From contig CBDCGL010000011.1 of NCBI GenBank assembly GCA_965216755.1, positions 2,976,001 to 3,040,000 on the forward strand: 64,000 nt of DNA, in the 5' to 3' direction. Position numbers and translations under genes: made by a program. The DNA comes from Alphaproteobacteria bacterium. Its GTDB lineage: Bacteria; Pseudomonadota; Alphaproteobacteria; UBA7887. Under the pieces are notes generated by a model, which saw only the letters and a program-made list of their open reading frames with translations, was not told where the DNA came from and made no database searches. The first letter of the stretch is position 1. The number at the start of each line of letters is the position of its first letter. This document shows, in pieces, positions 44,101-62,986 of the stretch.

Positions 44101-44223
44101 ATGACAATCCACAGGCGCGTTTTGGAATGGCAAGCCGCGCATCCGACAATCACCTGGATATTTTGGGGAATTGTCTGGCTGATCGTGTTTGTGTTGCTGC
44201 TGTGGCCGCAAACAGCGAGTTAG
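44101..44223 (+). CDS. Putative 40-aa Trp-rich single-TM small protein
   Basis: MTIHRRVLEWQAAHPTITWIFWGIVWLIVFVLLLWPQTAS; stop 4 bp before the cytochrome c start. Confidence 0.6.
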   Translation: MTIHRRVLEWQAAHPTITWIFWGIVWLIVFVLLLWPQTAS

Positions 44224-44227
44224 GCGA

Positions 44228-44581
44228 ATGATGCGCAATTTCGCCAGGTTTCGCGGCGCTTTGGCATGTGCGGCCATTGCGATCAGCGTCGCGGGCGGCG
44301 CGCTGACACTTCGCGCCAGCGGTGTCGGCGACGCGGCAGCGGGGCGCCTGTTGGCGGCGCGCCATTGTGGCCGTTGCCACGGAATTGGCGATGCCACCCA
44401 AAGCCCTTTGCCGCAGGCGCCCTTGTTCAGTGCGATCGCGCGCGCCTGGCCGCCGGATCACTTGGCCGAAGCACTGGCCGAGGGGATTGTGGTGGGGCAT
44501 GCGGCTATGCCGGCCTTCGTTTTTTCGACACCGGAAATCGATGACTTGTTGGCGTACATGAAGGCGATCACCCAGGATTGA
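44228..44581 (+). CDS. Mono-haem class I cytochrome c
   Basis: Signal peptide, G..LA...CGRCH, APLF..IA, H..MP.F.F, LLAY. Confidence 0.9.
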   Translation: MMRNFARFRGALACAAIAISVAGGALTLRASGVGDAAAGRLLAARHCGRCHGIGDATQSPLPQAPLFSAIARAWPPDHLAEALAEGIVVGHAAMPAFVFSTPEIDDLLAYMKAITQD

Positions 44582-58504: not shown

Positions 58505-59239
58505 CTAGCTGGGGCGGCAGGGTGTGTCTGAGACGACGCGGGCGGCCTTGGCCGAGGGCGCAGTCTCGGAGGTACGGGCCGACTTGAGCAGCCACCCCAT
58601 GCCGAGGGTCGCGATCAGGGCGCCGGCCAATTGGGCGACGACGAACGGCGCCACGTGAACCGGCGCGATGCCCGAGAACGTATCGGTGAACGCGCGCGCG
58701 ATGGTCACGGCCGGGTTGGCGAACGAGGTCGAGGCGGTAAACCAATAGCCGGCGGTGATGAATAGGCCGACGGCATATGGCACGGCCTCTGGTCGCCAGC
58801 GCAAGGTACCCAGAATTGTGCCGACCAGCCCCAGGGTTGCCACGGCCTCTGACAGCCATTGTGACGGTCCATCGCGCACTTTGGTCGACCACTCGATCGC
58901 GGCCAACTCGAACATGCCGTGAGCGACCAACACACCGATGAGTCCGCCCGCCACTTGCACCGCGACATAGAGCACGGCGTCGCCCAGCGAAATTTCGCGG
59001 CGCACCAGAAAGGCCAACGTGACGGCCGGATTGAAATGGGCGCCGGAAATCGGTCCAAATACCAAGATCAAAACAACCAATATGGCACCCGTGGGGATGG
59101 TATTGCCCAGCAAAGCCAACCCGACATTGCCGTCGGCCAACCGCTCGCCCATGATCCCAGAGCCGACCACGGTCGCCAAGAGCATCGCCGTCCCGACCGC
59201 CTCAGCGGCCAACCGCCGGCGCGTATCAAAAACTGCCAT
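58505..59239 (-). CDS. MIP/aquaporin of the ars-associated AqpS type
   Basis: Two NPA boxes (SGAHFNPAV, STSFANPAV), VVGSGIM.ERL; downstream of the arsC remnant. Confidence 0.9.
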   Translation of the reverse strand: MAVFDTRRRLAAEAVGTAMLLATVVGSGIMGERLADGNVGLALLGNTIPTGAILVVLILVFGPISGAHFNPAVTLAFLVRREISLGDAVLYVAVQVAGGLIGVLVAHGMFELAAIEWSTKVRDGPSQWLSEAVATLGLVGTILGTLRWRPEAVPYAVGLFITAGYWFTASTSFANPAVTIARAFTDTFSGIAPVHVAPFVVAQLAGALIATLGMGWLLKSARTSETAPSAKAARVVSDTPCRPS

Positions 59240-59255
59240 ATGCGTACGCCGATCC

Positions 59256-59597
59256 TCAGCCTGGTTCGCGCGCCGGTTCGGAAGCCGGCTGGCCAATATT
59301 GTCAAGCCGCGCCTGCAAGCTCAACCGGTCCGGCGAGGCGATCGGCAGATTGATAAATATGTTGACCCGATTGTTGAGCATGCACATGGCATCGACGAAC
59401 GCCGCGCGCTGGTCGGATCGTTCTGATTTCGCAGCAGCCGCAAGGCGTAAGGGGTGGACCGCGCCTTTGGCATGGTTGCCCGCACTATGGCCTTTGAAGT
59501 GGCGGCCACCGACGCGGTTGAGAATTGCCTCGGCCATGATGCTGCGCGCCGAATTGCCGGTACACAGGAACAGAACGTTATACGCTTTGTCAGACAG
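59256..59597 (-). pseudogene. arsC: arsC (LMW-PTP-fold arsenate reductase) remnant with frameshift and internal deletion
   Basis: [14 protein letters not shown]-loop and C-terminal [13 protein letters not shown] present; central segment with the resolving Cys residues and DP motif absent; CTG in place of the start. Confidence 0.85.
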
Positions 59598-59794
59598 GGT
59601 GATCTTGCCCGGTTGCTTGTTTGCGCTGATCCGCGCAAACCAAAAGATGCCGTCCCTGCGTGTGGCCGCGACTTGACTGATGCACCGTATCTTACTGCGG
59701 GAATATTGAGGTTCCGTGGCAAGAGCCGCGCGACGGTGGTGTGGTGGCGGGCCTATCGCTGGCGCGCGCGCCCACCTTGATGTACGGTGTTTTG

Positions 59795-60295
59795 ATGATT
59801 GCACGAATACCGACGATGGTCCGGTGCGGCGTCGTCCTTTGTTTCCTTGCCGGGGCGGCGTCGGCGGCGGATGTCGAAGGCGGCCTGGCGGCCGCGGAGC
59901 GTGGCGACTACGCAGCGGCCAAGTTGGCGTTCGAGTCCGCGGCAGAGGCCGGTGATGGCCGCGGCGCATTCTTTGTCGGGGTCATATATGACACCGGCGC
60001 CGGCGTCGACCGCGATCTCAATACCGCAGCGATATGGTATCGTAAGGCCGCCGAGCTAGACGTCGCCGAAGCCCAATATAATTTGGCGGTCATGTATGCC
60101 AATGGTGAAGGTCTGCCGAAAGATTTGGTGCATGCCTATGTTTGGTTTCGCCGTGCCGCGGATAATGGCATGGACGATGCGGCTGGCCACATTGAGACGC
60201 TGGAAAATATGATGTCCCAAGATGCGTTGGAAAAAGCGCGCGACCTTTTTGGTGCCAAGTCCGACGCGCAACCCGTTGCAAAACCGGATTCGTGA
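59795..60295 (+). CDS. Sel1-repeat (TPR-like) exported protein
   Basis: [26 protein letters not shown]. Confidence 0.9.
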
Positions 60296-60327
60296 CCGAC
60301 GGTTTAGATGGTGCGGACTGCTTGATC

Positions 60328-60723
60328 CTAGTCCGCAATGTCGCTGGCGTGCGCATCGACATTATGGCACGAGGCACACCATTGATGCGCGATCTGCTGG
60401 CCGACGATGGGGCTTGCCGACATGCCGAGCTCGGCCGGCGATAATCCTTTGAGCGTCGCGAAATACGCCAACACGGCTTCCCGTTCTGGTGGCCAAAACC
60501 AGAAGCCCGGCATGTTCATATGGGGTTGTGGGTCTTTGAGGCCGCGCAGGAAAGAATCAATTTCGGCCAACGATCGGCCTTTTGGTCCCGCGATCACGTG
60601 AAATGGCGGCGCATCCGCGGGCGCGGCGGCACTGTCGTCAAGACAACCGGCGTTTCCGATTGCCATGACAGCAAGTATGACGCGCCAATTTTTGCGCTTC
60701 CAGCCGGCCATCGCACCGATCAT
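60328..60723 (-). CDS. Cytochrome c-like protein with permuted domain order (C-terminal CxxCH)
   Basis: Order is leader, DAPPF..IA, PH.NMP.F.F, VLAYF, then G.QIA.QWCASCH, then stop. Confidence 0.7.
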   Translation of the reverse strand: MIGAMAGWKRKNWRVILAVMAIGNAGCLDDSAAAPADAPPFHVIAGPKGRSLAEIDSFLRGLKDPQPHMNMPGFWFWPPEREAVLAYFATLKGLSPAELGMSASPIVGQQIAHQWCASCHNVDAHASDIAD

Positions 60724-60898
60724 ATGAGCCAGTTCCGAACAAGCATCGTGTCACAGGGCGACCGATATCAATCGATCGGACAACACCCATTTTACGGCGC
60801 GCCCACCGCAACGCCATGTCCAATGCGCCACGCGGGCGCTGTATTGGTGGCCCGGATATGTTAAGCGGCAGCGCGCGAGACACGAGACCGAACGCTGA

Positions 60899-61591
60899 AT
60901 GCGCACCGACATGACCGTGCCACCAGACCGTGCAGCGCGTCGACACCCCCGGCAGCCTATTTTCAACGCACCCCCGGCGACTTTGGCGCTGTGCTTTGTG
61001 CTGATCGCATGTCATGTGCTGATGGTCATGGTGCCGGCCGCGCGGCGCGCCGAAATGTACGACTCGTTGTCATTCCAGCCGGCGCGGTTCTGGGCCCAAT
61101 TCGCGGCGGATGGCGGATTGACGCTGGCCGGTGTTTTGCCGCTGATCAGTCATGCGTTTTTGCACGCCGATTTCTTTCATTTGATCGTCAACACTGGTTT
61201 GTTGTTGGCCTTTGCCGCGGTCGTCGAGCGGCGCCTGGGCGCCATCGGCATGATGTCGATATTCCTGGTTGGGGTCGGCGCCGGAGCCGTGGCGCAATTG
61301 GCGGCGGAGGGCGCAATCGCGGCGATCATGATCGGTGCGTCGGGTGGCGTTCACGCTGTGATGGGGGCGGCCGCGGTCATGTTTTATTGTCTGCCCGGAA
61401 CAGGCCAGAGGCGCGCAGCTTTGATCTTCGTCGCGGTAATCGTGGGGCTTAACTTGGCGCTTGGCGTATTCTCGTTGGGTCCGCTTATCGCCGGCAGCAA
61501 AGTCGCGTGGCAGGCCCATATCGGTGGCCTTATCGCTGGCGCCATCCTCGGCTACGTTTGGTTGAGATTACGCTTTTCTGCGCTGGGCTAG
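60899..61591 (+). CDS. Rhomboid-family intramembrane serine protease
   Basis: PIFN.P, H.FLH...HL..N, GASG, AWQAH.GG. Confidence 0.93.
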   Translation: MRTDMTVPPDRAARRHPRQPIFNAPPATLALCFVLIACHVLMVMVPAARRAEMYDSLSFQPARFWAQFAADGGLTLAGVLPLISHAFLHADFFHLIVNTGLLLAFAAVVERRLGAIGMMSIFLVGVGAGAVAQLAAEGAIAAIMIGASGGVHAVMGAAAVMFYCLPGTGQRRAALIFVAVIVGLNLALGVFSLGPLIAGSKVAWQAHIGGLIAGAILGYVWLRLRFSALG

Positions 61592-61621
61592 GGCCGGTCG
61601 CAGCAACAAGGAGGGACGGAC

Positions 61622-62986
61622 GTGAACTTGCACAAGCTCTTGGCCGCCAAGGCCGAAGCCGATCAGCCGGTGCGCGTGGGAATTATTGGCGCCGGCAAGT
61701 TCGGCACCATGTATTTGGCACAAGCGCGGCGGACAATCGGAGTCCACGTGCTCGGCATCGCAGATCTGAACATCGCCCGCGCGCGCGCCGCTTGTCACGC
61801 CGCCGATTGGCCCGAGTCGCAATATGCCGCAACATCATTCGAACAGGCTGTGACCGAGGGGTCGACATGTTTGACCGAATCAGCCGAGGCCCTGATTAAG
61901 GCCGATGGATTGGACGTGGTCATCGAGGCGACAGGTGATCCCCACGCCGGCATGCGTCATTGCCTGTGGGCGATCGATGAGGGTCGGCACATCATCATGG
62001 TGAATGTGGAAGCCGATGTGGTCGCAGGGCCGTTGCTGGCGCGTCGCGCGCAACAAGCGGGCGTCGTCTACAGTTTGGCCTATGGGGACCAACCGGCGTT
62101 GATTGTCGAGCATGTCGATTGGGCGCGCGCCTGCGGTTTTGATGTGGTGTGTGCCGGTAAGGGCACGCGATATCATCCCGACTTCCATCAATCGACGCCG
62201 GAAACCGTGTGGGACAACTTCCGCTGGTCGCGTGAACTTGCTGAGCGTGCCGGCGCCAACCCAAAAATGTTCAACAGTTTTATCGACGGCACCAAGTCGG
62301 CGATCGAAATGACCGCGGTGTGCAACGCCACCGGGTTGACACCGCAGCCCGATGGTCTCGGATTTCCGCCGTCGTCACGTTTCGAACTGGCTGACGTCTG
62401 CAAGCCGCGCACGGCCGGCGGCACGGTCGCGCACGCCGGAACGACCGAAGTCGTGTCCTCGCTGTTTCGCGACAAGACGGAGGTGCCCAATCATCTGCAA
62501 ATGGGAACCTATGTGGTGGTTGCGGCCGCCTCGGACTATGTCCGTCATTGCTTCGAGGAATATGCCCTATTGCCCGATTCGACTTTCGACTATGGGGCAA
62601 TTTATCGCCCCATCCACATGATTGGGCTTGAACTGGGCATCTCGGTGGCTTCTGTTGCTCTGCGCGGCGAGCCGACCGGGGCACCAATCGAGTTCCAATC
62701 GGATGTCGTCGCGGTCGCCAAGCGCGACCTGAAGGCTGGCGACATACTCGACGGCGAAGGCGGCTACACCGTGTGGGGTCGCCAGCAGCCTGCGGAAACG
62801 TCGTGCAGGTCTGGCGCGTTGCCTCTTGGCTTCGCCAACAAAGTGACCTTGCGCCATGATATTTCGCGCAACCAAATTCTCGCCTGGGACGACGTCAAAC
62901 ACGATCCCGCCGATCCGGCCGTGCGTTTACGGCGCGAAATGGAGGCCGCGTTCGGTCGTCGCAACCGCGATCCGGCGGCGGCGTAA
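61622..62986 (+). CDS. NAD(P)-dependent oxidoreductase, homoserine-dehydrogenase-like, with C-terminal SAF domain
   Basis: GAGKFG, NVEAD, AYGDQP, DGTKS, DGEGG.TV, LP.G.A. Confidence 0.9.
   Translation: MNLHKLLAAKAEADQPVRVGIIGAGKFGTMYLAQARRTIGVHVLGIADLNIARARAACHAADWPESQYAATSFEQAVTEGSTCLTESAEALIKADGLDVVIEATGDPHAGMRHCLWAIDEGRHIIMVNVEADVVAGPLLARRAQQAGVVYSLAYGDQPALIVEHVDWARACGFDVVCAGKGTRYHPDFHQSTPETVWDNFRWSRELAERAGANPKMFNSFIDGTKSAIEMTAVCNATGLTPQPDGLGFPPSSRFELADVCKPRTAGGTVAHAGTTEVVSSLFRDKTEVPNHLQMGTYVVVAAASDYVRHCFEEYALLPDSTFDYGAIYRPIHMIGLELGISVASVALRGEPTGAPIEFQSDVVAVAKRDLKAGDILDGEGGYTVWGRQQPAETSCRSGALPLGFANKVTLRHDISRNQILAWDDVKHDPADPAVRLRREMEAAFGRRNRDPAAA

Follow-up and report, generated by a model that had tools for sequence, protein, structure and literature searches.

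A candidate natural circular permutant of the class I cytochrome c fold encoded in an alphaproteobacterial genome

The stretch of DNA analyzed here, referred to below as the window, comprises 64,000 nucleotides from an Alphaproteobacteria bacterium (assembly GCA_965216755.1, contig CBDCGL010000011.1, positions 2,976,001 to 3,040,000) and sits within a contig of 4.85 Mb. An open reading frame (ORF) at 60328..60723 on the minus strand of the window encodes a 131-residue protein in which the two halves of a class I cytochrome c domain occur in swapped order. The ORF starts with ATG and ends with TAG, and within it we find a basic and hydrophobic leader that closes with AIGNAGC (the last residue being Cys27), the segment LDDSAAAPAD, the region APPF-HVIAGPKGRSLAEIDSFLRGLKDPQ-PHMNMPGF-WFWPPEREAVLAYFATLKG, a short linker LSPAELGMSAS, and finally PIVGQQIAHQW-CASCH-NVDAHASDIAD followed directly by the stop codon. 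This agrees with how a first-pass annotation, made from the DNA letters alone, had quoted the ORF, including the leader end NAGCL and its CTT Leu codon. A convergent Sel1-repeat gene ends at 60295, which is 32 bp past the ORF stop, and a divergent rhomboid-family gene begins 175 bp upstream of the ORF start. We consider it moderately probable that the ORF, taken as a whole from start to TAG, encodes the precursor of a working cytochrome c with one haem, exported and probably lipid-anchored, in which the class I fold is circularly permuted.

Relatives of this protein were gathered by an exhaustive protein search and by whole-genome searches, and 19 of them with canonical order (13 encoded in genomes of the same class, 6 taken from the protein library) were used for a hidden Markov model (HMM) of 86 positions. 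Two segments of the ORF match this model, residues 31-92 corresponding to HMM positions 27-83 (33.2 bits) and residues 103-127 corresponding to positions 4-28 (23.8 bits). This is contrasted by control proteins of canonical order, namely the cytochrome c encoded at 44189-44581 in the same window and the relative P0011, each of which gave a single colinear match spanning positions ~3-84, and by the tandem di-haem controls P0008 and P0009, each of which gave two colinear matches spanning positions ~4-84. The canonical profile is therefore covered once in the ORF (positions 4-28 plus 27-83 of 86) by two pieces in reversed order, which is the signature of a circular permutation. The swap of halves that the first-pass annotation had read from the motifs is borne out, beyond chance, by these coordinates. 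Canonical domains have CxxCH ahead of the Met loop and of the C-terminal helix; in the ORF it follows both of them. The ORF also contains a single CxxCH and a single Met loop, as opposed to the two CxxCH domains that define tandem di-haem cytochromes of the c4 or CcoP-like type.

The elements of the permuted domain are all read on the minus strand. The C-half of the class I domain (residues 31-92, 60448..60633) contains a remnant of the loop that connects CH to APxF, the APPF motif (residues 38-41, 60601..60612), two helices, the Met loop and the C-terminal helix. Within the Met loop, the motif PHMNMPGF (residues 67-74, 60502..60525) carries Met71, the presumed distal haem ligand. A linker at residues 93-102 (60418..60447) fills the gap between the two HMM matches and leads from the C-terminal-type helix to the N-terminal-type helix. 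The N-half (residues 103-127, 60343..60417) comprises this N-terminal-type helix, the CASCH motif and the start of the next loop. CASCH itself (residues 116-120, 60364..60378) is identified by sequence and alignment as the haem attachment motif and would provide the proximal His. It is followed by a C-terminal tail, NVDAHASDIAD (residues 121-131, 60331..60363), that ends at the column where APxF begins in the relatives.

Conservation was assessed in two alignments, one of the ORF with 13 canonical C-halves (A4) and one with 13 canonical N-halves (A5), both of which were clean. In A4 residues A38, P39, F41, H68, M71, P72 and Y87 are invariant, with M71-P72 present in all 15 rows; in A5 the invariant residues are G108, A112, C116, C119 and H120, and the three CASCH residues C116, C119 and H120 are likewise present in 15 of 15 rows. 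Two further alignments in which N- and C-halves were mixed (A2 and A3) were misaligned by MAFFT and discarded; in A3 the program had set the C-half "FL..PH" against the N-half "WC..CH", a faint internal resemblance that is probably due to chance. Di-haem relatives were also dropped as colinear alignment rows, the search with P0009 having returned mostly single-domain matches.

The two ends of the chain fall within one and the same loop of the parent domain. Between CH and APxF, 24 of 25 canonical domains have 11-13 residues and the remaining one has 26; the ORF tail past CH is 11 residues long, and its final residue occupies the column immediately before the canonical AP.F. These counts substantiate the earlier remark that the stop codon falls where APPF would be expected. 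At the other end, the HMM aligns the ~10 residues that precede APPF at the mature N-terminus with this same loop. Pieces of the CH-to-APxF loop at both chain ends are what duplication followed by truncation predicts. As for other cytochrome classes, class II cytochromes c (c' and c556) were ruled out on the grounds that both halves match the class I profile and that no class II family is among the Pfam or NCBIfam matches. Language-model features of the ORF resemble those of c-type cytochromes (score of 0.94, 25 of 30 matches), and in the ESM Atlas the ORF gave scores of 0.90-0.91 with unnamed clusters whose entries come without sequences.

A second protein with the same architecture was obtained from an exhaustive HMMER search in which the ORF sequence was compared with 1.84 billion representatives at E <= 0.001. 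The 12 matches consisted of the ORF itself, four long tandem multi-haem proteins, two di-haem proteins, three canonical single-domain cytochromes, one repeat protein that we rejected as a chance match to FW.WPP, and P0004, a metagenomic protein of 137 residues that is 34% identical to the ORF and is the sole full-length colinear match among the 12. P0004 begins with a signal peptide that has a canonical lipobox (VALAAC), continues with AP.F...PHPGMPGFW...ERQQLTAYLTSL and a longer linker, and ends with ...AQAWCRDCH, 8 further residues and a stop. Its residues 25-85 correspond to positions 29-84 of the canonical HMM and its residues 112-129 to positions 4-21, so its halves are swapped as in the ORF. 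Between the two proteins C27, A38, P39, F41, P67, H68, M71-W75, E80, R81, A86, Y87, W115, C116, C119 and H120 are invariant, which includes the motif residues of CxxCH, of the Met loop and of AP.F. A homologue that keeps both the swapped order and the early stop (8 residues past CxxCH versus 11 in the ORF) thus exists, and the refuting case put forward in the first-pass annotation, that all homologues are longer tandem di-haem proteins and the ORF a unique truncation, fails since P0004 is permuted too.

The ORF and P0004 also share a 5-residue insertion before PH that is absent from all 13 canonical C-halves. In a tree of 27 C-halves the two proteins are sisters with a support of 92/84; this value is below the star threshold of the tool, so the grouping is suggestive and not proven. 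Together, the insertion and the C-half tree are suggestive of shared ancestry of the two permuted proteins. The linker differs in length, at ~10 residues in the ORF and ~26 in P0004. The P0004 linker (~86-111) contains a direct repeat made of two copies of a 9-10 residue unit rich in Ala, Arg and Pro, and the tail past CxxCH in that protein is rich in Pro. The repeat suggests that the linker can change in length while conservation of the halves is kept.

The leader of the ORF has the features of a signal peptide (residues 1-26, 60646..60723, minus strand), the n-region WKRKNWR being basic and the core VILAVMAIG hydrophobic; its Kyte-Doolittle hydropathy averaged over 10 residues peaks at 2.28 for residues 15-24. 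Signal peptides of lipoproteins end in a lipobox, L-[AS]-[GA]-C. Cys27 (60643..60645, minus strand), at the end of a weak lipobox GNAGC, is the probable lipidation site of the ORF, and it aligns with the Cys of the canonical lipobox (LAAC) in P0004, where ALAAC satisfies the PS51257-type pattern. An alternative raised in the first-pass annotation, that NAGCL is a decayed first CxxCH, found no support: there is no Cys at position -3, this part of the leader is the hydrophobic core typical of signal peptides, and Cys27 matches the lipobox Cys of P0004.

The ORF behaves as a coding sequence. It lies in a frame of 140 codons from stop to stop that is open for just 9 codons 5' of the ATG. Its codon-usage log-likelihood is 0.279 per codon, the highest of the six frames, compared with 0.308 +/- 0.126 for 1400 gene chunks of equal length and -0.14 +/- 0.18 for off-frame open stretches, and the score is similar across leader, C-half and N-half. 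The GC content at the ORF (0.57-0.59) is close to that of the chromosome (0.592). Neither flank carries cytochrome-like sequence in any frame, and CxxCH is absent from every frame of the 175-bp interval before the rhomboid gene; nothing has therefore been cut off from the ORF by a frameshift, and the earlier statement that no second half follows the ORF is upheld. The genome encodes CcmE (123 bits, which exceeds its cut-off), indicating that the System I cytochrome c maturation (Ccm) machinery that attaches haem to CxxCH is present.

Structure prediction gave results that depended on the input. AlphaFold2 run on the single ORF sequence reached a predicted local distance difference test (pLDDT) value of 37.7, and with alignment A4 this rose to 72.4 with a predicted template modelling score (pTM) of 0.62. 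In the latter model pLDDT is ~90 over residues 40-60 and ~96 over residues 80-120, a stretch that takes in both joined helices, the C-terminal-type one (78-91) and the N-terminal-type one as far as CxxCH, together with the linker between them. A Foldseek search with this model returned 0 matches at E <= 0.001, Foldseek being a sequential aligner that cannot judge a permuted topology. VIA-align, also a sequential aligner, gave a best Z of 3.3, with SoxD (2xts_D), CcoP (3mk7_C) and cytochrome c546/556 (8yts_B) at Z of 2.4-2.6.

As a stand-in for these sequential fold searches, we submitted the two halves of the ORF as separate chains together with haem to a complex predictor. The halves scored 0.35 by ipSAE, an interaction prediction score from aligned errors (individual runs at 0.35, 0.34 and 0.37), against 0.02 for the best control, with contact agreement of at least 83% and a partner pLDDT of at least 61. 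This outcome was graded as weak support. In calibration, which does not include riding ligands or user alignments, 116 of 157 solved complexes and 2 of 215 mismatches attained the mark; scores of 0.60 or less came from only 18 of the 157 solved complexes and from both passing mismatches. The pass may reflect no more than likeness to solved cytochromes c, which is itself what the test addresses, and it does not separate intra-chain from inter-chain packing.

Based on these data we propose the following course for the protein. The precursor would be exported by the Sec pathway and its signal peptide removed at or near Cys27, which is probably lipidated; the case for this modification is firm for P0004 and weak for the ORF. 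The Ccm machinery would then attach haem to Cys116 and Cys119, with His120 as the presumed proximal ligand and with Met71, which lies in the PHMNMPGF loop ~50 residues upstream of CxxCH, as the likely distal ligand. The helix that ends the canonical domain (~78-91) would be joined through the ~10-residue linker to the helix that starts it (~105-115), so that two helices which are packed together in every class I cytochrome c would here be contiguous in the chain, and the new chain ends would be located in the surface loop between CxxCH and APPF. The protein would act as a periplasmic one-electron carrier. Its most likely origin is a tandem two-domain ancestor that lost its first N-half and its last C-half, leaving loop remnants at both termini. 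The first-pass annotation had suggested a natural permutant with the Met ligand N-terminal to the haem site, a suggestion that the HMM coordinates and P0004 support at the level of sequence. We think it reasonably probable that the class I cytochrome c fold has here its first natural and selected circular permutant, serving as a haem-binding and membrane-tethered electron carrier.

Several observations weigh against a functional permuted cytochrome. The permuted family consists of two sequences only, with P0004 being a singleton on one 7.1-kb metagenomic contig, and the N-halves of the ORF and P0004 are not mutual best matches, short N-halves such as these leaving the relationship unsettled. 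The ORF scores below the Pfam gathering cut-offs (20.3 versus 21.3 bits for PF00034 and 12.9 versus 27 for PF13442), as is expected if the domain is permuted; P0004 also misses the PF13442 cut-off and reaches the whole-protein score of PF00034 (22.7 versus 21.3). The lipobox of the ORF fails the PS51257-type pattern at position -3 alone, where it has Asn. No clear Shine-Dalgarno sequence was seen before either ATG of the ORF and no sigma-70-like promoter was found on the minus strand. The gene is solitary in its neighborhood, with no operon partner, and conserved synteny was not found at 11 rhomboid-gene loci of relatives, which have neither homologues of the neighbors nor an ORF with CxxCH. 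Finally, searches that took in 845 other genomes gave no further member: there were 0 matches in 22 other genomes of the order and no match to either the ORF or P0004 by tblastn in a plasmid collection. Among 400 other genomes of the class, 47 had a match at E <= 0.01 and none a permuted member, with match ranges and stops indicating canonical order or a C-half followed by a stop (L022, L023 and L024 are canonical by ORF listing). Similarly, 400 other genomes of the phylum yielded no permuted member and 7 matches at E <= 0.001, all of the C-half type, 6 of which run through a stop codon while the seventh (G600, query residues 61-103) does not.

Much of this would also be expected if the ORF were a non-functional relic or ORFan, that is, what remains of a tandem cytochrome gene after rearrangement, its frame open by chance and its product either unexpressed or without productive haem binding. 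The extreme rarity of the family, the weak translation and promoter signals, the sub-threshold Pfam scores and the lack of a visible functional gene neighborhood all fit such an explanation, and the presence elsewhere in this genome of one frameshifted canonical cytochrome c indicates that decay of cytochrome genes does occur here. A pair of proteins at 34% identity that keeps the frame, the leader Cys, the order, the early stop and all haem-motif residues makes neutral relics hard to accept, however, as neutral decay would not preserve these. The codon usage of both halves is gene-like and frame-specific, and there is no close paralogue that could be the source of a recent rearrangement (best E = 0.0013). 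We therefore judge a relic to be unlikely. An artefact of assembly or gene calling, in which a mis-join or frameshift masks a normal or tandem cytochrome gene, was raised on account of the unusual architecture and has nothing positive in its favor. The short 5' extension of the frame and the flanks devoid of cytochrome sequence speak against it, as do the length of the contig, a public-run contig that spans 59700-61700 with 0 differences (this contig is possibly the source of the assembly and hence not independent) and the independent occurrence of the permuted architecture in P0004. This explanation is already largely refuted, and we regard it as extremely improbable.

A different possibility accepts the haem-binding permutant and changes only its assembly, such that each C-half packs against an N-half from a different chain in a domain-swapped, membrane-tethered multi-haem oligomer. 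Domain swapping was kept under consideration because a circular permutant of Aquifex cytochrome c555 engineered by Oda and co-workers (Chem Asian J 2018;13:964, listed among the references of PMC8565734) is said, in the title of their report, to form a trimer and a tetrahedron. The split-halves score of 0.35 versus 0.02 is equally compatible with pairing in trans, and the length of the linker is not conserved between the ORF and P0004. On the other side, the AlphaFold2 model is that of a monomer predicted with confidence straight through the linker, and a flexible linker of at least 10 residues should be long enough for the helices to pack within one chain. Such swapping appears quite unlikely to us, and a functional permuted cytochrome that folds as a monomer is the reading we prefer.

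Further searches for members of the permuted family were made at several scales. Searching the genomes of 40 relatives with the ORF protein gave 0 matches. A pattern scan of genome contigs produced 87 pattern matches and 0 confirmed relatives, and the sole "relative" from a pattern scan of metagenome contigs (L025) was rejected as a 10-residue identity in a non-cytochrome frame. A word-index search among proteins of near length recovered the query itself only (1 of 42 candidates), and among longer proteins 0 of 1132 candidates reached E <= 0.01; with the profile A1, 6 of 706 candidates were retained, being the 2 permuted proteins and 4 canonical ones. No close paralogue of the ORF was found in its own genome, the best canonical match being C11:1722660-1722986 with E = 0.0013. 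Another match in the same genome (C11:3930221-3933469, covering ORF residues 31-113 at E = 9.2e-5 and 33% identity) was judged to be due to chance, the protein concerned having 227 residues and no CxxCH; it adjoins a secA-like 3' end. A natural permuted class I or c-type cytochrome was not found in the full-text literature, a source that leaves most subscription journals outside its coverage.

The frameshifted canonical cytochrome c referred to above belongs to the same family and lies outside the window, at C11:3662664-3662876 on the minus strand plus ~300 bases upstream. Signal peptide, N-helix and CSGCH are in one frame and the C-half (HMM positions 34-83) is in another, and the frameshift is located in the CH-to-APxF loop, the same loop in which the permuted chain begins and ends. 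The split gene is probably a pseudogene or a sequencing error.

At the DNA level, a hairpin with an 8-9 bp stem crosses the stop codon of the ORF (60312..60337, minus strand). It exists as described in the first-pass annotation, though it folds no better than shuffled sequences (z = -1.09, with 33 of 200 shuffles folding equally well), and with no T-tract it is atypical as a terminator. No terminator-like site was found on the minus strand and nothing meaningful in the way of DNA repeats at the ORF ends. Short contigs from a second study with another organism label (X5) are identical to the window over 60733-61008, an interval made up of intergenic DNA and the first part of the rhomboid gene, with the ORF outside it. 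Contigs of sequencing runs aligned to the window showed no differences from it, and those of another run (X3) likewise do not extend over the ORF. Just past the Sel1-repeat gene, at 58505-59720 on the minus strand, are genes for a major-intrinsic-protein channel and for a low-molecular-weight phosphatase or ArsC-like protein; these resemble an arsenic-type detoxification pair and show no apparent connection with the cytochrome.

Class I cytochrome c serves as a reference for work on protein folding, on electron transfer and on haem attachment, and its folding is considered to begin with docking of the N- and C-terminal helices. If our interpretation is correct, a protein in which these helices are adjacent in sequence and the chain ends lie past the haem site would constitute a ready-made test of folding order, and it would likewise test how Ccm handles a class I domain in which the chain ends 11 residues past CxxCH. 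It would also represent a natural example of permutation by duplication and truncation in which loop remnants at the chain ends record the origin. Standard domain models miss such proteins: the ORF reaches neither Pfam cut-off, and P0004 fails to reach one of them.

The closest known counterparts of the permuted protein are canonical single-domain cytochromes of ~105-145 residues (P0007, P0011-P0016 and the 13 class-genome genes). They share G..(I/L)A..WC..CH, AP.F, PH..MP.F and E...(L/V).AY with the ORF, both halves of which align to them with the haem-motif residues invariant. These relatives carry PF13442 or PF00034, and the ones that are named are annotated as "mono/diheme cytochrome c family protein". 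They differ from the ORF in the order of the halves, and the insertion before PH sets both the ORF and P0004 apart from them. One canonical-order class I cytochrome c lies in the window itself, at 44228..44581 on the plus strand (in a frame that opens at 44189). It reads as the first-pass annotation quoted it, and it passes both Pfam cut-offs (40.6 bits versus 27 for PF13442, 24.2 versus 21.3 for PF00034). As a parent of the ORF this cytochrome is not borne out, for it belongs to a different, LAEALAEGI-type subfamily that is set apart in the C-half tree by a 97/95 split; its BLASTP match to the ORF is weak and extends over 25 residues only (E = 1e-4). With the second domain of the di-haem protein P0009 this cytochrome shares 44% identity, and its gene is flanked by a periplasmic solute-binding-protein-like gene and by a 232-residue ORF on the opposite strand.

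Tandem di- and multi-haem cytochromes (P0008, P0009, P0002, P0003, P0005, P0006 and CcoP of cbb3 oxidase, 6xkw chain p) are similar to the ORF in another way, as the ORF is colinear with their succession of C-half n, linker and N-half n+1. For example, residues 47-137 of P0009 align with ORF residues 32-122 across the domain junction, and the best sequence match in the PDB, CcoP 6xkw_p at E = 0.063, likewise spans a junction. This colinearity is what would be expected of the precursor state for a permutation by duplication. The ORF differs from the tandem proteins in that the signal peptide directly precedes the C-half, a stop follows 11 residues past CxxCH, and there is one CxxCH and one Met loop.

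With respect to proteins of known structure, the HMM of canonical-order relatives finds horse cytochrome c (1hrc) at E = 9e-8, with positions 4-83 and so nearly the full length aligned, which identifies the parent fold as class I. Horse heart cytochrome c thus has the same parent fold with segments that are permuted in the ORF, and the new termini presumably map to the loop between its His18 and Pro30, the residue that hydrogen-bonds the proximal His18. Class II cytochromes c (c' and c556) are four-helix bundles with CxxCH near the C-terminus and, in c556, a Met ligand far upstream. The position of CxxCH resembles that in the ORF, but they are unrelated to it in sequence, the ORF halves being class I. 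A parallel in topology is the engineered c555 permutant, a class I cytochrome in which the native termini are reportedly joined, a helical linker inserted and new termini created at another place. It resembles the ORF in its joined native termini, but it is man-made, has a helical linker and, to go by its title, oligomerizes. That such a permutant is on record indicates that the permuted topology proposed here is feasible.

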